Of a stretch of DNA of 44,120 bases, positions 2,816 to 33,766 are shown piece by piece. Under the pieces are notes generated by a model. It made no database searches, was not told the origin of the DNA, and worked only from the letters and a program-made list of their open reading frames with translations. Source of the DNA: Enterobacteria phage mEp213; the sequence record NC_019720.1; one strand, written 5' to 3'. Positions within the stretch are counted from its first letter, which is position 1. Each line of letters begins with the position of its first letter. A program made the translations under genes and the position numbers.

Positions 2816-4311
2816 GTTTTTTAGATGATGCGATAGGCCTGTTTTCACCAGGCTGGAAAGCCTCACGCCTGCGTGCCCGCGCAGTTATTAAGGCGTATGA
2901 GGCGGTAAAGCAAACGCGTACCCACAAAGCCCAGAAGGAAAATCGTTCAGCCGATCAGCTCAGCCAGATGGGGGCGGTTTCACTGAGGCAGCAGGCGCGC
3001 TGGCTGGACAACAACCACGATCTGGTGATTGGCGTTTTCGACAAGCTGGAAGAAAGGGTGGTGGGTGCGAAGGGCATCATAGTTGAACCGCATCCGATGC
3101 TGACTAACGGGAAGATAGCTAAAAAGCTGGCCACTGACATCCGCAGAAAGTGGGGCGAATGGTCCGTAAGACCCGATGTTACAACCCAGTTTACCCGCCC
3201 CATGCTGGAGCGGCTGATGCTGCGAACGTGGCTCCGGGACGGTGAGGTATTTGCTCAGCTGGTTCGCGGTACCGGAAATGGTCTTCAGCCGGTTGCTGGC
3301 GTGCCGTTCTGGCTGGAAGCGCTGGAGCCGGACTTCGTGCCGATGAACAGCGATGCCGCCACCCAGCTCAATCAGGGCGTTTTTGTCGATAACTGGGGGC
3401 GCCCGAAAAAATATCAGGTCTATAAAAGCCTGCCAGTATCCGGGCGTCAGTTCGATACCAAAGAGATAGATGCAGAAAACATGCTGCATCTCAAATTCAC
3501 ACGACGCCTGCACCAGACCCGCGGAACGTCTCTATTGTCAGGTGTTCTGATGCGTCTGAGCGCGCTGAAAGAGTACGAGGACTCGGAGCTTACTGCTGCC
3601 AGAATTGCTGCGGCACTCGGCATGTATATCAAAAAAGGCGACGGACAGAGCTTCGATTCTGATTCAAGCAGCGATGACCGCGAGCTGATGATTCAGCCCG
3701 GTATGCTCTATGACGAACTGCAGGCCGGGGAAGAAATCGGGATGATTAAATCCGATCGCCCGAACCCTAACCTCGAATCTTTTCGTAACGGACAGCTGCG
3801 TGCCGTGTCCGCCGGCAGTCGCCTCAGCTTTTCCAGCACATCCAGAAACTACAACGGAACGTACAGTGCCCAGCGGCAGGAGCTTGTCGAGTCAACCGAC
3901 GGATATCTGATTCTTCAGGACTGGTTCATCGGTTCAGTGACCCGGCCCATGTACCGGGCCTGGCTGAAGATGGCTATTGCTGCCGGAGAAATCAAGCTGC
4001 CGAGAGGCATCGATATGGACTCGCTTTATAACGCGGTTTATTCGGGGCCCGTTATGCCGTGGATTGATCCCGTTAAAGAAGCGAATGCCTGGAAAACGCA
4101 GATCCGCGGCGGTGCTGCTACTGAATCCGACTGGATACGTGCCAGCGGTCGCAACCCGGATGATGTTAAGTCACGCCGTAAAGCGGAGGTTGACGAGAAC
4201 CGTGAACAGGGACTGGTGTTTGACACCGACCCCGCCAATGATAAAGGAGGCACCAGTGCCGAAGCCAAAGAACCGGGCGCGCCACCGTCCGAAAGCCAGC
4301 GCAAAAAGTAA
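2812..4311 (+). CDS. Portal protein
   Basis: 499 aa directly after terminase and W-like gene; ATGA start overlap; acidic C-terminus. Confidence 0.85.
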   Translation: MSFLDDAIGLFSPGWKASRLRARAVIKAYEAVKQTRTHKAQKENRSADQLSQMGAVSLRQQARWLDNNHDLVIGVFDKLEERVVGAKGIIVEPHPMLTNGKIAKKLATDIRRKWGEWSVRPDVTTQFTRPMLERLMLRTWLRDGEVFAQLVRGTGNGLQPVAGVPFWLEALEPDFVPMNSDAATQLNQGVFVDNWGRPKKYQVYKSLPVSGRQFDTKEIDAENMLHLKFTRRLHQTRGTSLLSGVLMRLSALKEYEDSELTAARIAAALGMYIKKGDGQSFDSDSSSDDRELMIQPGMLYDELQAGEEIGMIKSDRPNPNLESFRNGQLRAVSAGSRLSFSSTSRNYNGTYSAQRQELVESTDGYLILQDWFIGSVTRPMYRAWLKMAIAAGEIKLPRGIDMDSLYNAVYSGPVMPWIDPVKEANAWKTQIRGGAATESDWIRASGRNPDDVKSRRKAEVDENREQGLVFDTDPANDKGGTSAEAKEPGAPPSESQRKK

Positions 4312-6680: not shown

Positions 6681-6948
6681 CCCCTTTGACCGGATGGCGG
6701 CGCGCATGGACGCGGCCACCATAAAAAAGATGGGAAAGACAGCGATCATCAATGGCAGCAGCTATGACGTTGTTCCAGCCGATCAACTCGAGGAAATGGG
6801 ACCATTGTCGGGAACAGGTACTTCGCTGGTGGTTTTCTCTGAGCTTTACCAGCCACGCCGAAACGACAGCGTCGACTACGACGGTAAGAACCTGACCGTT
6901 ACCCGCTATGACATGTTCAACGGAAAACCCCACATCCATCTCGAATGA
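6673..6948 (+). CDS. Head completion/head-tail adaptor (gpFII-like)
   Basis: 91 aa; start overlaps upstream stop; motif pattern resembles lambda FII from memory; position before gpZ. Confidence 0.5.
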   Translation: MPNPFDRMAARMDAATIKKMGKTAIINGSSYDVVPADQLEEMGPLSGTGTSLVVFSELYQPRRNDSVDYDGKNLTVTRYDMFNGKPHIHLE

Positions 6949-6957
6949 GGAGGCGCT

Positions 6958-7536
6958 ATGTCTGTGAAAGGACTGGAAAGGGCTATTCAGAACCTGAACA
7001 GCCTCAGCCGGTTAATCGTTCCTGAGGCAACCGCAAAAGCACTAAACCGGGTGGCCAGCAGAACGATAAGCCAGGGGAGCAAAGCTGTAGCGAAAGAAGC
7101 AACAGTTGATGATAACCGGAAAAAGGGACTTCCGGTTCGTCTGGTCCGCCAGCGTTCCCGTCTGCGCAAGGCTCGTCACGATCGCCAGGTCGCGTCGATA
7201 AAAATCAACCGCGGTAATCTTCCTGCGATAAAGCTCGGCACGGCGCGCGTCCGGCTCTCGCGTAAAAAAGGGGCCAGAAACGGAGCGGGCAGCGTCCTTA
7301 AAATCGGGCCCTATACCTTTCGTAACGCTTTTATCCAACAGCTCTCGAACGGGCGCTGGCAGGTCATGCGGCGCGTAGGTCAGGCCCGTTATCCGATTGA
7401 TGTGGTCAAAGTTCCTCTTGAGACACCGCTCACCGTGGCCTTCACCGCTATTTCAAAGCGCCTTATTGAAAGCGATATGCCCAAAGAACTTTCCGCAGCC
7501 CTGAAAAACCAACTGAGGATCCACCTGAAGCGATGA
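6958..7536 (+). CDS. Z: Tail completion protein Z
   Basis: 192 aa; close match to remembered lambda gpZ (NRVASR...SQ, KINRG.LP.IKLG.ARV.LSR, NGRW.VM.RV...RYPIDVVK.P). Confidence 0.85.
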   Translation: MSVKGLERAIQNLNSLSRLIVPEATAKALNRVASRTISQGSKAVAKEATVDDNRKKGLPVRLVRQRSRLRKARHDRQVASIKINRGNLPAIKLGTARVRLSRKKGARNGAGSVLKIGPYTFRNAFIQQLSNGRWQVMRRVGQARYPIDVVKVPLETPLTVAFTAISKRLIESDMPKELSAALKNQLRIHLKR

Positions 7537-7934
7537 ACAGACACAGCGCAATTCGTGCAGCCATTCTGGCAAAACTGAAAGCCGAGATCACCGACACGGT
7601 CACCTGGTTTGACGGGCGCCCTGTTTTTCTTGAAGAGCAGGATCTCCCTGCCGTGGCTGTATACCTTTCTGACGCGGAGTACACCGGCGACTCGCTTGAC
7701 GAAGATTCGTGGCAGGCGGTTGTTCACATCGAGGTATTTCTTAAAGCCTCCAGCCCCGACAGCGCGCTTGATTCCTGGATGGAAGAGAAAGTGTATCCGG
7801 CAATGGCCTTCATCCCGGGTCTGACCGAACTGGTCGAGACGTTCACCCCGCAGGGTTATGACTATCAGCGGGATGATGAAATGGCCACCTGGGGTTCAGT
7901 CGATTTCACGTACTTAATCACCTATTCAATTTAA
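7533..7934 (+). CDS. U: Tail terminator protein U
   Basis: 133 aa; matches lambda gpU motifs (FDGRP.VF.E.D.PAVAVYL..AEYTG, HIEVFL, GYDY.RDD). Confidence 0.85.
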   Translation: MNRHSAIRAAILAKLKAEITDTVTWFDGRPVFLEEQDLPAVAVYLSDAEYTGDSLDEDSWQAVVHIEVFLKASSPDSALDSWMEEKVYPAMAFIPGLTELVETFTPQGYDYQRDDEMATWGSVDFTYLITYSI

Positions 7935-7943
7935 GAGGTACTT

Positions 7944-8687
7944 ATGCCTACTCCAAACCCGCTGGCCCCCGTGAAAGGTGCCGGTACCACACTCTGGCTT
8001 TACACCGGAACGGGCAACGCTTTCGCTAACCCACTCTCGGATATCGACTGGAACCGCCTGGCGAAAATTAAAGAGCTGACGCCGGGCGAAATGACCGCAG
8101 AATCGTATGACGACACTTACCTCGACGACGAGGATGCCGACTGGAACGCGACGGCCCAGGGGGCAAAATCTGCTGGCGATACCTCGTTCACCCTCGCCTG
8201 GAAGCCGGGCGAAGAAGGGCAAAAAGACCTTGTCGCATGGTTTATTGATGGCTCAGTACGTTATTACAAAATCAAATACCCGAACGGTACCGTCGACGTT
8301 TTCTGTGGCTGGTGCAGCAGCCTGGGTAAAGCCATTCCGGCAAAAGAGGTCATTACCCGTACAGCGAAAATCACCAATACCGGCAAGCCGGAACTGGCAG
8401 AAGAAAGCGGGACCCCGAATATCCCCGTGACCGGCGTTACGCTCGATAAAGCCACGGCAAGCGTGGTCGTCGGCGCAACCACAACGCTCAATGTGACGGT
8501 TAACCCTGCCAGTGCCTCAGATACCTCGTTCCGCGTGGCAACCTCCGACGGGGCAAAAGCAACGGTCACCGTTAGCGGCAACGCGATCACCGTCACCGGC
8601 GTGGCGGCAGGCACCGCTGACGTTATTGTTATGACCAGCGACGGTAATTTCGTTGCGGTCTGCAAAGTCACCGTAACTGCAGCGTAA
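7944..8687 (+). CDS. V: Major tail protein V with C-terminal Ig-like domain
   Basis: [15 protein letters not shown]...ANPLSD.DW.RLAK, NGTVDVF.GW.SS.GKA; Thr/Val-rich C-terminal repeats. Confidence 0.9.
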
Positions 8688-8697
8688 GGAAGGACGC

Positions 8698-9138
8698 ATG
8701 TTTCTGAAAAAAGAGAAGTTCACCTGGCAAACAGAGTCCCTGACCATCTTCGAGCTGTCGGCCCTTCAGCGTATTGAGTTCCTCACGTTTATGGCAAATG
8801 AGGAGAAGGCCGTCAGCGCTGACAGCGATGGCATAAGCGATCAGGAAGTCACGACCCGGCTGATAGGTTCAAATATTCGCTGCGGTGCGCGCTTGATCGC
8901 GATGTCTTTGTGGCATAACGAGCCGGCCGGCACGGATGTGGAAACGTTGTATCAGCAGGTCCTGAGCAGCTGGCCGCCGGAGGCTATCGGCAAAGCCGAA
9001 ATGCAGGTCAAGCTACTATCAGGCATGTTATTCCCCGTTGAAGATGAGAAAGTTGATCATCAGGACGTGGAGGGTTTAACTGACTCCTCTGCTAACGAAG
9101 AATCCGTTACCGCGGAAAAGCCCTTGCCAGCGAGCTGA
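8698..9138 (+). CDS. G: Tail assembly chaperone G
   Basis: MFLK....LSELSALQRIE...AMSLWHN matches lambda gpG. Confidence 0.85.
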   Translation: MFLKKEKFTWQTESLTIFELSALQRIEFLTFMANEEKAVSADSDGISDQEVTTRLIGSNIRCGARLIAMSLWHNEPAGTDVETLYQQVLSSWPPEAIGKAEMQVKLLSGMLFPVEDEKVDHQDVEGLTDSSANEESVTAEKPLPAS

Positions 9139-9461
9139 AGTTTGTCCTGAATCTGGCGCGCGAGTTCGGTCGACCCGACTGGCGCGCCATGCTGGCTGGG
9201 ATGACTTCCAGTGAACTGGGCGACTGGCACCTGTTCTACCGGGAGCATTATTTTCAGGACGCGCAGCTCGATGCGCATTTCTCCGGGCTGCTTTATTCCA
9301 TCTCCACTCTTTTCTTCCGCGATCCGGAACTTACCCCCGCACATTTCAGCCTGCTTTCTCCTTCGGAAAGCGTCATCAGCGATGACGAGCCGGATGATGA
9401 TACGCTGATGACCGCCGCTGAGGGGATAACAGGAGGTATCCGATATGGCCCAGCAGATTAG
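8698..9461 (+). CDS. T: Tail assembly chaperone GT fusion via programmed -1 frameshift (slip near 9114-9120)
   Basis: The -1 frame is open from 9096 to 9461 and overlaps the G 3' end; G GAA AAG sits at the lambda G-T slip position; T-frame stop overlaps H start. Confidence 0.65.
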
Positions 9462-27967: not shown

Positions 27968-28572
27968 TAAGCAGCCGCTCCTTCTAATTCGTCTCGTCTG
28001 ATGTTGTAAACGTCCTGCGCTTTGTGCTGCTCCGGTGTTCCTTCGAGCATCTTCCACGCTTTGGCGAACGCCTGTTTAAGCTCTTCCACGGTGTTTTTCT
28101 GCATTGCTGCGTCAGTGAATGCTTTTAGAACCTGTTCAGGTGTAGGTGATGGTTTTGATTGCTTTGCTACTGCGTTCTGCTGATGTTTATGCTCGTCTGT
28201 ATCTGCATCTTTCGCATCATCAATGCCGAACAAACCATTGAGGCAATACTTGCGTGCATAAGAGCTTGTAGCTCCCGTAACTTGTGCAGAATCCATCCCT
28301 TTCTTGCTTTCTTCCTCTCGTGCAAGAGCGGTTGCCGTATGACTGTTTTCGCCATCGGTAATAGTTGCCGTGGCTTTCACGTAATACCGATCACCAATCA
28401 ACACAACTTCATCGCTGATTGATAAAAACAGGCCATTCAGTAACGGCTTAACGCCTTCAAGAATGTCTTCGCAGCTTCTGTATTTATATTTTCCGAATGA
28501 GTTGTACTGATTCTTTGGCGCGTTCAGATTTTCCTGAATAGCTGCCAGTCTTGCGTAAAATTCTTTGCTCAT
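27967..28572 (-). CDS. erf: Erf single-strand annealing recombinase (P22 Erf-like)
   Basis: MSKEFYARLAAIQENLNAPKNQYNSFGKYKYRSCEDILEGVKPLL... closely matches remembered P22 Erf. Confidence 0.85.
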   Translation of the reverse strand: MSKEFYARLAAIQENLNAPKNQYNSFGKYKYRSCEDILEGVKPLLNGLFLSISDEVVLIGDRYYVKATATITDGENSHTATALAREEESKKGMDSAQVTGATSSYARKYCLNGLFGIDDAKDADTDEHKHQQNAVAKQSKPSPTPEQVLKAFTDAAMQKNTVEELKQAFAKAWKMLEGTPEQHKAQDVYNIRRDELEGAAA

Positions 28573-28661
28573 ATGATTGTTCTCAGAATGGACATGGCCC
28601 AAGGAAATAACGCTGATTTAATACTTCAGTCTTTGCCGCATTTAAAAATACGCGAACACCT

Positions 28662-28832
28662 TCACGATCTCCCTTCTGGCGATACATTAACGCCTGCTGC
28701 GTGTACATGCGTCTCTGTAACTTGCTCTCCTTCACTGTGGTTGCAAGTGACATGAATATCTCCTTCGTTACCGATTAATTCTTTCATCTGACGAATGAAT
28801 TCTTCGTCTGACCAGTTATCTGTAAAACTCAT
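28662..28832 (-). CDS. Hypothetical small acidic protein (56 aa)
   Basis: ATG overlaps the Kil-like stop (ATGA coupling). Confidence 0.35.
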   Translation of the reverse strand: MSFTDNWSDEEFIRQMKELIGNEGDIHVTCNHSEGEQVTETHVHAAGVNVSPEGRS

Positions 28833-28981
28833 TTCCTGCGATACCACTGAAGGTTGATAGCTGATTTCATCGCTTTATTTGCTTCAAGCCACATTTTTGA
28901 ATCACCAATAAATCTGGCTATTACTGCTTTGTTCTGTGCAGCACGAAGCATCTGGTGATTGATGGCTATTTCATTGCGCAT
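28829..28981 (-). CDS. kil: Kil-like host-killing/cell-division inhibitor (50 aa)
   Basis: IARFIGDSKMWLEA resembles lambda Kil (ATFIGDEKMFREA); directly downstream of cIII-like gene. Confidence 0.5.
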   Translation of the reverse strand: MRNEIAINHQMLRAAQNKAVIARFIGDSKMWLEANKAMKSAINLQWYRRK

Positions 28982-29097
28982 AATAAGACCTCAACTCTTT
29001 TCCATCCGTCACGTAATTTACGGGTGATTCGTTCAAGTAAAGATTCATTTAATTGGAAGGCACCCATGCGAGCGCCTCCCGCGATTGCGTAAATCAT
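28966..29097 (-). CDS. cIII: cIII-like protease inhibitor (43 aa)
   Basis: MIYAIAGG....ESLLERITRKLRDGWKR matches the lambda cIII core from memory; below the ORF-track size cutoff. Confidence 0.65.
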   Translation of the reverse strand: MIYAIAGGARMGAFQLNESLLERITRKLRDGWKRVEVLLCAMK

Positions 29098-29121
29098 GGG
29101 TGGTTCCTTATGTTGGTTTTA

Positions 29122-30090
29122 TTAGTAGGTTATTTTTGTTGCGAATACTTCGCCTTTTACGATGGCTGTTATGATATTTTTAGCAACATCTTCTGATGCA
29201 CCAACCTTGATAAGGTCAGCAAGTATTTTGTTATTTACTTCTTTCCGGTGAGCTTTATCCTTTGCTCTACGCTCTTCTTCTTCCTTGATTCTTTTTTCTT
29301 CTGCTATTCTGGCTTGCTCTTTTGCTTCAGCATCGCGCCGGATTCGTTCAGCCTCCTCCTGTGCTTTTCGGCGTTCTGCTTCAATTGCCGCCTGCTTTTC
29401 TCTTTCAGCTCGTTCTGCTGCCTCTTTTGCTTCGCGCTGTGCTCGTTGCTCGGCCTCAATGCGTTCACGCTCTGCACGTTCCGCTGCGGCCTTAGCTTCT
29501 GCTTCTCTCCTTGCTGCTGCTTCAATTTCGGCTTTTGCCTTTGCTTCGGCTTCTGCTCTGGCTTTCTCTTCAGCTTCTCTTTTTAAGCGTTCTTCATGCT
29601 CTCGCTTTTCCTGCTCCGCTTTGAGTCTTGCCTCTTCTCTTTGGCGGTCAAATTCGCGATCCATCAAAATCGCTATTTCATGGTCAGACTCAATTTGCTT
29701 TGCGAGAGCTTCAGCTGCTGCCTTAGCTTCTTCTTCGGCTTTAATCCGTGCCTGTTCCTCCTCATAATCAGTAAGAGGCTGGCGCGCCTTGGCTTTCAGC
29801 TCATCAAGGCGATCACGCACTGTCTTGCGGTTGGCATCAATTAGCTTTGGAATTTCCTTCAGTTCAGCAACAAGGTCTTTGCCAAGACCATCGAGATATG
29901 TTTTCGTCTGCGCAACTTTATACGCCAGAGAAGCGATCTCCTTTCTGCCCTTTGCCGTTGTGATATCAGGCGCAAAGGACATAACTTCACGTTCAACCCT
30001 TTGAAGGATTTCTTCAATCTGGTCGGCAGACTGAAATACAGTCATTGCATTTGCTTTTTCAATAACAACTAAATCTGTTACTTCACTCAT
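29122..30090 (-). CDS. Charged coiled-coil/single-helix protein (E/R/K/A-rich), unknown function
   Basis: 323 aa from ATG 30090 (GGAGGA RBS); central 200 aa of EEARLKAEQEKREHEERLKREAEEKARAEAEAKAKAE-type repeats. Confidence 0.6.
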   Translation of the reverse strand: MSEVTDLVVIEKANAMTVFQSADQIEEILQRVEREVMSFAPDITTAKGRKEIASLAYKVAQTKTYLDGLGKDLVAELKEIPKLIDANRKTVRDRLDELKAKARQPLTDYEEEQARIKAEEEAKAAAEALAKQIESDHEIAILMDREFDRQREEARLKAEQEKREHEERLKREAEEKARAEAEAKAKAEIEAAARREAEAKAAAERAERERIEAEQRAQREAKEAAERAEREKQAAIEAERRKAQEEAERIRRDAEAKEQARIAEEKRIKEEEERRAKDKAHRKEVNNKILADLIKVGASEDVAKNIITAIVKGEVFATKITY

Positions 30091-30123
30091 ATATCCTCCG
30101 TCAAAAAAAATCGCCCCCACACT

Positions 30124-30191
30124 GGAGGGCAAAGAAGATTTCCAATAATCAGAACAAGTCGGCTCTTGTTTAGTTACGAGCGACATTGCTC
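30124..30191. repeat. 68-bp direct repeat, copy 1, followed by 9-bp-stem hairpin (30193-30220)
   Basis: 67/68 identical to 31521-31588. Confidence 0.9.
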
Positions 30192-30264
30192 CGTGTATTC
30201 ACTCGTTGGAATGAATACACAGTGCAGTGTTTATTCTGTTGTTAGTGCCAAAAATAAAGGCCGA

Positions 30265-30588
30265 CTATGCGGCCTTATCTACATTCCTGAACCAAACGCA
30301 GATCGGACCGTCTTCTGTATCGTGAATCGAACCGACAAACCATCCTTCTCCATCTGGCATGCTTGGCTCCCATCCACTGATGTTTGGATTCCCATCTTCA
30401 AAATACGCGTCAATTACCGTTTGATTGTTGTCGTTTTCCATTTCAACAATTGATGATTCAATGCCATGCTGCTTGCAGAAATATCTGAACTCATCAGCTG
30501 AAATTGCCTCTCTATCCCCAAACAGGTTGGCGTATTCTGGGTGCGTCCAGTAGCCATCCTCGCTTCGCTCTACTACTAATGCTTCCAT
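30265..30588 (-). CDS. Hypothetical strongly acidic protein (107 aa)
   Basis: About 23 Asp/Glu versus 6 Lys/Arg; stop overlaps a GGCCG-N6-CGGCC hairpin. Confidence 0.45.
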   Translation of the reverse strand: MEALVVERSEDGYWTHPEYANLFGDREAISADEFRYFCKQHGIESSIVEMENDNNQTVIDAYFEDGNPNISGWEPSMPDGEGWFVGSIHDTEDGPICVWFRNVDKAA

Positions 30589-30650
30589 ATATCACCTCAA
30601 ATAAGTGGTTTGCTGCCAAAACAATGAACCATCCGGAAATTCCAGATAGT

Positions 30651-30878
30651 TCATAATTCACTCTTCAATACTTCCAGCTTACTAATCGCCGAAAGATATC
30701 CGCGCTGATAGGGCATCATCATTCCTTCGAGCTTGCCACTTCTTAACTCCTCCCTGAGCAATTGTATTGCTTGATCAATAACCTCTGCCTTAGCGTCCTT
30801 TATGGCTTGCTTGCGGGGCTTTGCTTTCTGCTTTGGCAGATTTCTCAAGCATGATGGAATGTATGTCTGATTCATCAC
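30651..30878 (-). CDS. Hypothetical protein (75 aa)
   Basis: ORF contiguous with the upstream gene. Confidence 0.4.
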   Translation of the reverse strand: MMNQTYIPSCLRNLPKQKAKPRKQAIKDAKAEVIDQAIQLLREELRSGKLEGMMMPYQRGYLSAISKLEVLKSEL

Positions 30879-31151
30879 TTACCTCGCCGTCAGTTGTTTT
30901 GATTTCCGGTATCCTGCCGCGTAAATGGCTACGTTTGGCAGGCAAATACTTCCACTGCATTCTTCTGCCTTCTTGCAGCGAAGGCTTCCGAGTGATGCTG
31001 CTTTGTCTGCTCTGACGCAACCAGAGAGCTTTAGCGCAATTTTTCGCGCCAGTCGCTGTTCTTGCATTGCCTGCTCACGTTGAGCCTGTCTGCGTGCTCT
31101 GCGGCGATTTCTGGCGTTATCGTCAGCCAGATATGTAATGACTACTGTCAT
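30879..31151 (-). CDS. Hypothetical protein with Arg-rich N-terminus and four Cys (90 aa)
   Basis: ARNRRRARRQAQREQ segment followed by a Cys cluster. Confidence 0.4.
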   Translation of the reverse strand: MTVVITYLADDNARNRRRARRQAQREQAMQEQRLARKIALKLSGCVRADKAASLGSLRCKKAEECSGSICLPNVAIYAAGYRKSKQLTAR

Positions 31152-31520
31152 GTTGACCTCCGATGATTGACTTTGGCGGTGACGCGCCGGGTGCTTATCT
31201 TCCGGTTGCCGTCGTGCAGCTGCACTTCACGTCACCCCAAAGCCAACTACTCTTTGACTCACACTCTCGCAGTGAGCGCGCTCATGCCCTTGAGTCTCTG
31301 TCGCTTATTAGCCGCTGATAACCGGTGCGCGTCTGGCATTCGCGCTGCCTTTCCGGAGCATGTTCCCTTATTTACCCTCACATCGGTCTGCTAAACCTGC
31401 TCGCCATTACGCGACTCGGGGCAGCATCATTACTGCTGCATTGCCTTTCGGCTGCGGTCTAACCGCGTTAGTGCACCATTACAGCACCTCATGTTTGGTT
31501 AAACTCAGTTCCCGCATTTC

Positions 31521-31588
31521 GGAGGGCAAAGAAGATTTCCAATAATCAGAACAAGTCGGCTCCTGTTTAGTTACGAGCGACATTGCTC
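31521..31588. repeat. 68-bp direct repeat, copy 2, followed by 8-bp-stem hairpin (31591-31614)
   Basis: 67/68 identical to 30124-30191; adjacent hairpin has a different stem but a loop again beginning CTCG. Confidence 0.9.
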
Positions 31589-31620
31589 ACATAGCAGACT
31601 CGCAAATCTGCTATAGGTGC

Positions 31621-31782
31621 TTATTCGCATCGCATGACAACATCAAATTTTTCGAGATTACTTTGTCGCAACAATCCCTCTTCTACGCGGTCAGCTTTTC
31701 TATAATTATCAAATTCGAAATGTTTAATTACTTCTTTCGTTTCTCGCTCTATAACTTCAACAATGTATTTCTTATTCATCAT
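31621..31782 (-). CDS. Hypothetical small protein (53 aa)
   Basis: ATG overlaps upstream stop (ATGA). Confidence 0.4.
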   Translation of the reverse strand: MMNKKYIVEVIERETKEVIKHFEFDNYRKADRVEEGLLRQSNLEKFDVVMRCE

Positions 31783-32063
31783 TCTTCCCCCAGGGCCTTG
31801 CTGATGGCTGCCTTGGCTCGTTTGTATTCGGTTAACTCTCTGCACCCTTCGTCATGCTCGTAAAGGAAGACAAGCTCTTGCAGTGCTTCAAGCAAATCAG
31901 GAGCTGCTGCTATCAGTAGCGCATCCTCCCTTTCATTTCTTGTTGCTGCTTCAATGTATGTGTCACCAATCGTCACACCATGGAACGTAGTCATCATCTC
32001 GTTGACGTTTCTAACCGTGTACTTCCATTTACCAGGCGTACCCTTAAACTCTTTCATATTCAC
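31779..32063 (-). CDS. Hypothetical protein (94 aa)
   Basis: ORF in pL operon. Confidence 0.45.
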   Translation of the reverse strand: MNMKEFKGTPGKWKYTVRNVNEMMTTFHGVTIGDTYIEAATRNEREDALLIAAAPDLLEALQELVFLYEHDEGCRELTEYKRAKAAISKALGEE

Positions 32064-32111
32064 CTCTGTTGTTTATGCCAAAAGAAGGCCGACTATGCGG
32101 CATAATTATTT

Positions 32112-32300
32112 TTAACTATCATCAATACATGGCACTTTATTCCAGTCGATATCGTTTTTATTGTCGTCCCACATGTCTTTGTTTTTGTATTTCTCGCTAC
32201 ATCCTAGGCAAATGTTGTATGGCCTACCGATAAGGTTTAACGAAATACGTTGCATTTCATTTGATTCAAACATGTATCCACAGAACTGACATTTATGCAT
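32112..32300 (-). CDS. Small zinc-ribbon-like protein (62 aa)
   Basis: CxxC...CxxC pattern (CQFCG ... CLGC); first gene after N. Confidence 0.45.
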   Translation of the reverse strand: MHKCQFCGYMFESNEMQRISLNLIGRPYNICLGCSEKYKNKDMWDDNKNDIDWNKVPCIDDS

Positions 32301-32303
32301 ATC

Positions 32304-32636
32304 TCACCCCTCATACAGTAGCTTACTGCCTAATTTCATTTTCTGGCGACCAACACAAGTCACACCCATTTCACTGCGTGGCTTGCTGTACCATGTGCGC
32401 TGATTCTTGCGCTCAATACGTTGCAGGTTGCTTTCAATCTGTTCGTGGTATTCAGCCAGTACCGTAAGGTCTATCGGATTCAGTGCGCTTTCTACTCGTG
32501 ATTTCGGTTTGCGATTCAGCGAGAGAATAGGGCGGTTAACAGGTTTTGCGCTTACCCCAACCAACAGGGGATTTGCTGCTTTCCATTGAGCCTGTTTCTC
32601 TGCGCGACGTTCGCGGCGGCGTGTTTGTGCATCCAT
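32304..32636 (-). CDS. N: Antitermination protein N (lambda-like)
   Basis: MDAQTRRRERRAEKQAQWKAANPLLVGVSAKPVNRPILSLNRKPKSRVESALNPIDLTVLAEYH matches lambda N from memory; divergent C-terminus. Confidence 0.9.
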   Translation of the reverse strand: MDAQTRRRERRAEKQAQWKAANPLLVGVSAKPVNRPILSLNRKPKSRVESALNPIDLTVLAEYHEQIESNLQRIERKNQRTWYSKPRSEMGVTCVGRQKMKLGSKLLYEG

Positions 32637-32904
32637 CTGGATTCTCCTGTCAGTTAGCTTTGGTGGTGTGGTGGCTGGTAGTCTAGCTCCAGCTTGTTGA
32701 GTCTCATTCGGAGGGGTATAACCGGCACCCCAGCGATTTTTCCATGCGACAACGTGCGCGTTATGGCGGCCTTATCGCCCGCGGCTCCCCATCTCGTCCA
32801 CGCTATTGCTAGCGTTGGGAGCGCTTCACCGCTCAACAGTAGGTAAGCACTTGCCAGTGACTAGCTGGCTTCACCACACCCCAAAGCCTTCTGCTTTGAA
32901 TGCT

Positions 32905-32935
32905 GCCCTTCTTCAGGGCTTAATTTTTAAGAGCG
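32905..32935 (-). promoter_or_regulatory. nutL (boxA CGCTCTTAA and boxB GCCCTGAAGAAGGGC on the - strand)
   Basis: Reverse complement of 32905-32935 gives boxA then boxB as in lambda nutL. Confidence 0.85.
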
Positions 32936-32974
32936 TCACCTTCATGGTGGTCAGTGCGTCCTGCTGATGGCTAG

Positions 32975-33036
32975 ATAATCACAAATTGTGTTCGTGCTGT
33001 CAACACGAAATGTGATTGTTTTTATCACAACACGTG
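32975..33036 (-). promoter_or_regulatory. pL with three CAC-N5-GTG operators (OL)
   Basis: - strand -35 TTGACA (32998-33003), 17-bp spacer, -10 GATTAT (32975-32980); operator dyads at 32980-32990, 33004-33014, 33026-33036. Confidence 0.6.
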
Positions 33037-33124
33037 TTTTCATTGATTTTTAAGGTAATTTAATTTTCTTTGGGCAACAAAAAACCCGCCGAAGCGGGTT
33101 TGATGTTTTTAAGTGGCGGGTATA

Positions 33125-33766
33125 TCAGGAGAATTTCATCATCATCTGCACTGCTACGCCGATTATCTTGCAGTTGCCGTCGATTGGGATCAACGGATAG
33201 GCAGGGTTAAGCCCTTTCAGGTATTTGTTACCGCCATCAATGATTAGCTTCTTGAACGTGGCTTCATTAGCATCTGTCAGCTTCGCAACTACCAGGCTTC
33301 CATTAACGGCTTCCTTTCCAGTGTCGAACAGAACCAGCATACCCTCAGGAACGCTAAGGCCGGTAGGAGCTGTCATTGAGTCGCCCTGAACCCTGAGCCA
33401 GAAGGCGTCACCGACAACGTGACAATCTGATTCATACCACTCATCCACTGCCTGAGGGTTGTACGGCTCTACGGCCTCACTCCATGCACCTGCGCTAACC
33501 CAGCTAATCAACGGAAACTTTTCCCCTGGCTTGTATTGTCCCTGATAGTTGTCGCCAAAAAGCAGTTCTGCCGGAGCGACGCCCAAAGCTTTAGCTATTA
33601 CCTCTGCGTCATCAACACTAACGCTTCTGGTTCCTGATTCATAGTTGCCGATCCGAGATTGTGAAGCCCAGCCGCAAAGCTCCGCCAGAGCCTTCTGTGA
33701 AAGCCCTTTATCTTCCCGTAATCGCTTGATACGCGCGGCGATAGTTTCTGTTCTGTTCATGCGCAT
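33125..33766 (-). CDS. cI: CI-type repressor (HTH plus S24 LexA-like autopeptidase domain)
   Basis: N-terminal HTH (LSQKALAELCG), GDSM active-site serine motif, conserved Lys downstream; divergent from cro; terminator hairpin downstream (33084-33105). Confidence 0.85.
   Translation of the reverse strand: MRMNRTETIAARIKRLREDKGLSQKALAELCGWASQSRIGNYESGTRSVSVDDAEVIAKALGVAPAELLFGDNYQGQYKPGEKFPLISWVSAGAWSEAVEPYNPQAVDEWYESDCHVVGDAFWLRVQGDSMTAPTGLSVPEGMLVLFDTGKEAVNGSLVVAKLTDANEATFKKLIIDGGNKYLKGLNPAYPLIPIDGNCKIIGVAVQMMMKFS

Follow-up and report, generated by a model that had tools for sequence, protein, structure and literature searches.

In the lambdoid coliphage mEp213, a gene which we term orf107 (30265–30588, minus strand, an ORF from ATG to TAG) encodes a strongly acidic protein of 107 residues and belongs to PHROG 1372, a gene family that is already catalogued and wholly uncharacterised. 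Coordinates refer to the window, that is, the whole stretch of 44,120 nucleotides that was analysed (NC_019720.1). The gene is real and subject to purifying selection, and its product is a plausible and well-defined anti-defence candidate, though not a discovery. Judged by sequence searches and by its predicted fold, the protein is not homologous to Ocr, ArdA or any structurally solved DNA mimic. We tentatively propose a polyanion with a new fold that may inhibit a DNA-binding enzyme or serve it as a decoy. The data fit a portable cargo of elements entering new hosts, in the form of a stably folded polyanion with one conserved acidic hairpin. For the family, the databases and literature searched yielded no function, whether experimental or annotated; accession- and topic-based literature searches returned nothing on the protein, and the literature on mEp213 does not discuss the gene.

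The product of orf107 is XSB40816.1 (100% identity; UniProt K7PKY8), annotated in mEp213 as "hypothetical protein", and the 3.2 kb surrounding the gene are 100% identical to PV340538.1 (Escherichia phage mEp213, 44,124 bp). The ORF and the composition given for it in the initial annotation, namely 23 Asp/Glu against 6 Lys/Arg and a net charge of −17, were confirmed exactly. The acidic residues comprise 10 Asp and 13 Glu (21.5% D/E), the basic ones 2 Lys and 4 Arg, plus three His, and the computed charge at pH 7 is −17.2 with a pI of 4.09. A Shine–Dalgarno sequence read off the DNA, GAGGTG (30593–30598, minus strand), lies 4 nt upstream of the ATG. At the other end of the gene there is an intrinsic-terminator-like hairpin followed by a T-run (AAGGCCGCATAGTCGGCCTT; 30247–30276, minus strand, with the hairpin itself at 30276–30257), and the TAG stop codon is located in the hairpin loop.

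Upstream, a pL-like sigma-70 promoter (TTGACA, 17-nt spacer, GATTAT; 32975–33003, minus strand) adjoins cI and is the only promoter-like site within 29000–33200. A hairpin search identified GCCCTGAAGAAGGGC (32905–32919, minus strand), which we take to be the lambda nutL boxB. The first gene of the early left operon, N1 (32304–32636, minus strand; ORF and record annotation), is a lambda-type N whose product starts with MDAQTRRRERRAEKQAQWKAANPLLVG, presumably the lambda N arginine-rich motif. Three small ORFs separate N1 from a 68-nt distal boundary repeat (31521–31588), which opens a cassette containing a second N-type antiterminator gene, N2 (30879–31151, minus strand; annotated N, Pfam PF25694 N_peptide, E = 7.7e−16), the gene of a small basic protein, orf75 (30651–30878, minus strand), directly upstream of orf107, and orf107 itself. 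The cassette is closed by a proximal 68-nt repeat (30124–30191). As the two repeats, detected by a repeat search, are direct and 99% identical, the repeat-bracketed cassette in which the gene had been placed is real. A strong terminator (30132–30111) accompanies the proximal repeat, downstream of which follow a TolA-like coiled-coil gene, kil, bet and abc2. The 68-nt sequence, which also borders the variable slot of phi296, BY63, E2348/69 and strains 97.3 and 222, resembles a joint at which modules are exchanged by recombination. That orf107 is expressed from the N-antiterminated early operon had been claimed as well. Here the position is borne out, and because orf107 follows pL, nutL boxB and N on the same strand and no promoter-like site intervenes, its expression from an N-antiterminated early-left transcript can soundly be inferred from the sequence. 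The small protein encoded by orf75 has no Pfam, NCBIfam or PADLOC family. It accompanies N2 in relatives and was rejected as a conserved partner of orf107, the ORFs upstream of the homologues in D6 and mEp460 being unrelated to it.

The terminator-like hairpin of orf107 (30252–30278) has an 85% identical copy at 32080–32106, directly 3′ of a 62-aa CxxC...CxxC ORF (32112–32300) that itself follows N1; unrelated cargo genes thus have a 3′ joint in common. Between the orf107 terminator and the boundary repeat there is, in addition, a 22-nt imperfect inverted repeat (30183–30230; 82% complementary, 4-nt loop) that lacks a T-run and lies in a region kept in phi296 and strain 222. Rfam yielded no match in 28500–33500, this inverted repeat included.

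In E. coli lambdoid phages, orf107 is located at the very start of the early-left operon, which is also the site of ral. Close relatives in E. coli prophages have it as the first or second gene behind N; of the ~32 closest viral-contig relatives, ~28 have an N gene that begins 90–860 nt upstream, and in 13 the stop of a lambda-type N adjoins the orf107 start. The prophage of EPEC E2348/69 carries the same N2-orf75-orf107 module after its immunity region. In the Stx-type phage phi296, N2-orf75 is 97.9% identical up to window position 30582, a point within the initial codons of orf107, and 95.8% identity to mEp213 is retained in the boundary sequence; the slot between these flanks (96–98% identical) holds ral and one other ORF in place of orf107. 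Ral, DUF7446 or Nmad5 genes lie under matches to the orf107 region in other E. coli prophages. Ral (lambda restriction alleviation) shares with orf107 the slot one or two genes behind N in the pL operon but is unrelated in sequence, and the 66-aa Ral of phi296 is not notably acidic. The two genes are not strictly alternative cargo, since one E. coli-type viral contig (IMGVR_UViG_2698536618_000022) carries both orf107 (3214–3537) and, ~1 kb downstream, ral (at ~4236). In E. coli strain 222 the neighbours of orf107 differ on both sides; orf107 thus travels as a single-gene unit.

More distant phage homologues (45–50% identity) do not adjoin N and are found deeper in early accessory regions, next to Ea22-like, DUF551, exonuclease and methyltransferase genes. 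No conserved neighbour was found across 130 loci; the neighbourhoods are heterogeneous, most of the recurrent neighbours have no Pfam family, and apart from methyltransferases in a minority of these loci, no known anti-defence partner recurs. In 17 loci from viral contigs, a Hok/Gef toxin gene (Pfam E = 3e−23) is present two to three genes downstream of 46%-identical homologues.

Searches with orf107 retrieved PHROG 1372 (E = 1.5e−43, residues 1–106) and PHROG 20322 (E = 8.1e−16). The protein is a direct member of these clusters; both are devoid of functional annotation and thus carry no information on mechanism. A profile built from 30 homologues collected 1,010 representatives of 50%-identity clusters from a library of 1.8 billion proteins, 503 of them with E < 1e−10, and the orf107 cluster in a 15-billion-protein collection has 142 members, all called "hypothetical" or "prophage protein". 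With tblastn, relatives were detected in 78 sequenced phages, including Burkholderia phi1026b/phiE125, phages of Pseudomonas, Vibrio, Erwinia and Klebsiella, Yersinia PY54, P1-like D6 and mEp460. Further relatives are found in more than 547 viral contigs of IMG/VR, and many species of Enterobacterales and Pseudomonas carry them in prophages. The conserved core of the family consists of an N-terminal V.R..G.W.HP motif and a near-invariant C-terminal motif, W.P..P.G.GWF.SIHDTEDGP.C.W.R. Comparison of orf107 with a relative at 93.5% nucleotide identity gave a dN/dS of 0.10; against more distant relatives dS is saturated and dN amounts to 0.11–0.21. A chance ORF is ruled out by this conservation.

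With −15.9 charges per 100 aa, orf107 ranks second among the 70 annotated mEp213 proteins, in the company of NinF (−17.9), a tail protein (−15.1) and another small ORF (−14.3). Its acidity is therefore an outlier in mEp213 but not unique, and composition by itself is weak evidence. The acidity extends to the family: in 181 copies of the ~100-residue domain, the median net charge is −15 (5th–95th percentile, −19 to −8), with 20% D/E versus 6.7% K/R. Only 12 alignment columns are consistently acidic, accounting for ~9.5 residues per protein, and ~12 more acidic residues per protein occupy variable positions, while Lys and Arg are almost limited to R8, R101 and the C-terminal tail. Acidic residues at variable positions and the near absence of Lys/Arg suggest selection on overall negative charge in addition to selection on a specific acidic hairpin (D90, E92, D93).

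AlphaFold2 predicted an alpha/beta fold (30-sequence alignment; pLDDT 86.7, pTM 0.71). An N-terminal beta-hairpin, helices 19–23, 31–40 and 56–64 and strand 43–49 are followed by a long conserved loop (65–83) and a C-terminal beta-hairpin (84–102). According to the model and the alignment, D90, E92 and D93 of the conserved motif lie at the turn of this last hairpin. A Foldseek search of the model against 350,542 PDB chains gave a best E-value of 0.56, with no solved structure matching, and neither a single-sequence (phmmer) nor a profile search of PDB sequences returned a match. Matches in BFVD were only uncharacterised proteins of the same family. The Pfam-A scan at E ≤ 1 yielded only a chance match to RAG2_PHD and none to Ocr, ArdA or ArdB/KlcA; NCBIfam has no family for the protein, PADLOC has 0 families matching at E ≤ 0.1, and none of the known anti-defence families matched in the Pfam, PHROG and NCBIfam searches.

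These results bear directly on the assignment, in the initial annotation, of the protein to DNA-mimic anti-defence candidates of the Ocr/ArdA type. A plausible candidate it remains, owing to the acidity of its family, the ral slot and the occurrence on plasmids; the kinship with Ocr and ArdA does not survive. The empty PDB sequence searches, the Foldseek result and the restriction of BFVD matches to the protein's own family all argue against homology. Ocr, an inhibitor of type I restriction–modification and BREX that takes the place of DNA, is an all-helical, elongated dimer resembling bent B-DNA. Membership in the Ocr (T7 gp0.3) family was rejected because there is no Pfam or PDB sequence match and the predicted fold is alpha/beta rather than all-helical, and membership in the ArdA family, which has a three-domain fold, because a Pfam, PDB sequence or fold match is equally lacking. 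It is thus hardly conceivable that orf107 is a true Ocr or ArdA homologue: the one point in favour is composition (21% D/E, pI 4.1), and the mixed alpha/beta prediction and the lack of any Pfam match at E ≤ 1 or PDB sequence match stand against it. DNA mimics form a functional, non-homologous class marked by high Asp/Glu content and low pI, by a spacing of surface carboxylates that matches duplex phosphates, and by competition with DNA for a DNA-binding protein; the high Asp/Glu content and low pI are present in orf107, and its family shares the acidity. As with Ocr and ArdA, we deal with a small, very acidic protein presumably made early at mobile-element entry, and, as with ArdA, both phages and conjugative plasmids carry the family. 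The differences lie in sequence and fold, a predicted alpha/beta domain with a conserved acidic hairpin versus an elongated helical DNA-shaped dimer, and in the location of the homologues outside the leading region in the plasmids inspected.

Plasmids represent the other large reservoir of the family: tblastn detected relatives in 2,442 plasmid records (1,896 Klebsiella; 2,130 conjugative). Four Klebsiella IncFII/IncFIB plasmids that we inspected (including pGR-1780) share the gene order traX-finO-...-membrane protein-DUF2726-homologue-PLD family-repA2, the block from the membrane protein to the PLD-family gene occupying positions 1513–3123 in L011, 5336–6946 in L065, 2845–4457 in L068 and 2836–4442 in L069. 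The start of each homologue (34–44% identical to orf107) and the stop of DUF2726 overlap by 4 nt. The product of the DUF2726 gene (Pfam E ~5e−22) shows a weak match to REase_MTES_1575 and has an N-terminal TM helix; the DUF2726 Pfam family is classed as PD-(D/E)XK nuclease-like. The sequence KGR following the TM helix suggests that the nuclease-like domain is cytoplasmic and membrane-tethered. The PLD-family protein encoded after the homologue has a signal-peptide-like N-terminus. In pF16EC0617-2 the homologue is preceded by a homologue of the membrane protein and not by DUF2726, and in Enterobacter IncF plasmids it separates traW from traU in the tra operon and has no nuclease beside it. In one such plasmid, from Enterobacter hormaechei (6943–9306 of the locus), the homologue and four other hypothetical ORFs are inserted between traW and traU, and the stop of the homologue overlaps the traU start. 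Every plasmid homologue inspected thus lies either tra-distally or within the tra operon, and none is in the leading region, the usual place of anti-defence genes of plasmids. No DUF2726 relative was found near the homologue in the mEp213 window or in the phage, prophage and other loci examined; a search for DUF2726, PIN or PLD relatives near phage and prophage copies recovered only PLD, in two plasmid-like loci.

Analysis of domain architectures showed that, among the 150 best family representatives, roughly half are multidomain, with 74 flanks of at least 50 aa. Fusion partners of the orf107 domain include an Rv2179c-like 3′–5′ exonuclease (DEDD-type) and a DHH/DHHA1 phosphoesterase, and there is one tandem duplication. 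A frequent, shuffled partner is an unnamed module with the pattern ERQRQ...HDD...AEIERLDR. A separate profile search with a 65-sequence alignment returned no multidomain match bearing a Pfam annotation. The ERQRQ module is ~100 aa long, occurs as a fusion with the orf107 domain in 17 representatives (P0088, P0062, P0095 and P0092 among them) and has the consensus ...ERQRQ...G.T...DD.Y..GELA.AA.Y...WPW...KP...R.L.KAGAL..AEIERLDR. It also constitutes the C-terminus of at least nine PHROGs without assigned function, and had no Pfam, PHROG-function or PDB match.

Taken together, the reading that we tentatively favour is the following. The protein would be a folded, cytoplasmic, polyanionic accessory protein, presumably made early in lytic growth from pL, and would act in stoichiometric amounts, either inhibiting a positively charged nucleic-acid-binding enzyme or serving as its decoy. 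The target class may be a nuclease or restriction-type defence protein, encoded by the host or by a resident mobile element; the coupling to a PD-(D/E)XK-like protein on plasmids hints at a nuclease. The acidic beta-hairpin of the conserved motif (...SIHDTEDGP.C.W.R), together with the acidic surface around it, would then cover the DNA-binding surface of the enzyme, so that orf107 would be functionally "DNA-mimic-like", with a fold and family (PHROG 1372) unrelated to Ocr or ArdA. Ugi, phi29 p56, T7 gp5.9, barstar and NuiA provide parallels, as these are small acidic blockers of DNA- or RNA-binding sites with folds of their own; some of them are encoded beside the nuclease that they inhibit, in parallel to the DUF2726 coupling in IncF plasmids. 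Family-wide acidity, the conserved hairpin site, the dN/dS of 0.10, the ral slot, the distribution and the association with nucleases all point in this direction, and our preference remains tentative in view of several observations to the contrary. mEp213 encodes three further proteins of similar acidity, none of the known anti-defence families matches, the neighbourhoods in the 130 loci are heterogeneous, and the plasmid copies lie outside the leading region. The coupling to DUF2726 was seen in what is essentially a single plasmid lineage, with pF16EC0617-2 lacking it, and fusion to nucleases would be odd in a nuclease inhibitor. It is rather doubtful, though worth stating, that orf107 is the founding example of a whole family of new-fold polyanionic inhibitors, carried alike by temperate phages, by P1-like phage-plasmids and by IncF conjugative plasmids (pKpQIL-type plasmids of Klebsiella among them), which neutralise a nuclease-type barrier to incoming DNA, possibly the membrane-tethered DUF2726 proteins with their translational coupling to the plasmid homologues, the lambdoid copy being an "orphan antidote" in the ral slot.

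We regard as somewhat doubtful the possibility that orf107 is an accessory or adaptor module of mobile-element DNA metabolism and not an anti-defence protein. The domain would tether or regulate phage or plasmid nucleases, phosphoesterases and recombination proteins, or recruit a host factor. The abundance of multidomain representatives, the nature of the partners (Rv2179c-like exonuclease, DHH/DHHA1 phosphoesterase and ERQRQ module), the location of distant homologues among Ea22-like, DUF551 and exonuclease genes rather than beside N, and the presence of paralogues within one locus are all consistent with such a role. However, in mEp213 the domain stands alone, and its gene has a ribosome-binding site and a terminator of its own, is exchanged singly between differing flanks and lacks a conserved partner gene. 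In mosaic early-left regions, moreover, in-frame fusions are frequent and may be functionally meaningless. Alternatively, orf107 could be an immunity or antidote protein for a nuclease of the same element, with the phage copy acting as an orphan antidote that guards incoming phage DNA against nucleases of this kind borne by plasmids or prophages. The 4-nt start/stop overlap with the DUF2726 gene in four Klebsiella plasmids, the likely membrane-tethered, cytoplasmic nuclease-like domain and the recurrence of PLD-family genes beside homologues in two further loci would be explained in this way. We nonetheless consider it unlikely, because no DUF2726 relative accompanies the homologue outside the plasmid block in the loci examined, a different membrane protein is upstream in pF16EC0617-2, the Enterobacter IncF homologue between traW and traU has no nuclease, and the nuclease activity and toxicity of DUF2726 are themselves putative. 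A small metal-binding protein or enzyme, acting for example on a small molecule or signal through H16, H89, D90, E92, D93 and C97, seems very unlikely. The conservation of these residues (74–99% over 180 sequences) is more site-specific than a pure charge decoy requires. Against this, H89 is conserved in only 78% and C97 in only 74% of the sequences, the predicted fold has no enzyme relative, and the 100-aa domain is strongly anionic, without obvious pocket-forming basic residues.

If the family does consist of anti-defence proteins or nuclease inhibitors, it would add a new fold to the few acidic inhibitors used by mobile elements and would assign a function to a gene that thousands of clinically important IncF plasmids and hundreds of prophages carry. 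The slot right after N in lambdoid phages would then be a general anti-defence cargo site. If it does not, orf107 would be one more well-conserved gene of the early-left accessory pool.

Several features of the surrounding region are worth recording in their own right. Two N-type genes in tandem are present in one early-left operon, N2 being located ~1.2 kb downstream of N1. The same N1-N2 tandem occurs in a prophage of the E. coli O68:H12 strain 97.3, and the N2 type is the sole N in E2348/69 and phi296. In phage CUS-3 a "boundary sequence bsq5" is annotated under the match to the boundary-repeat region. Finally, the 322-aa "TolA" protein encoded downstream of the cassette (29122–30090, minus strand) is E/K/A/R-rich and coiled-coil-like, with degenerate internal repeats; given its negligible match to the TolA model (E = 0.72), this annotation is probably compositional.
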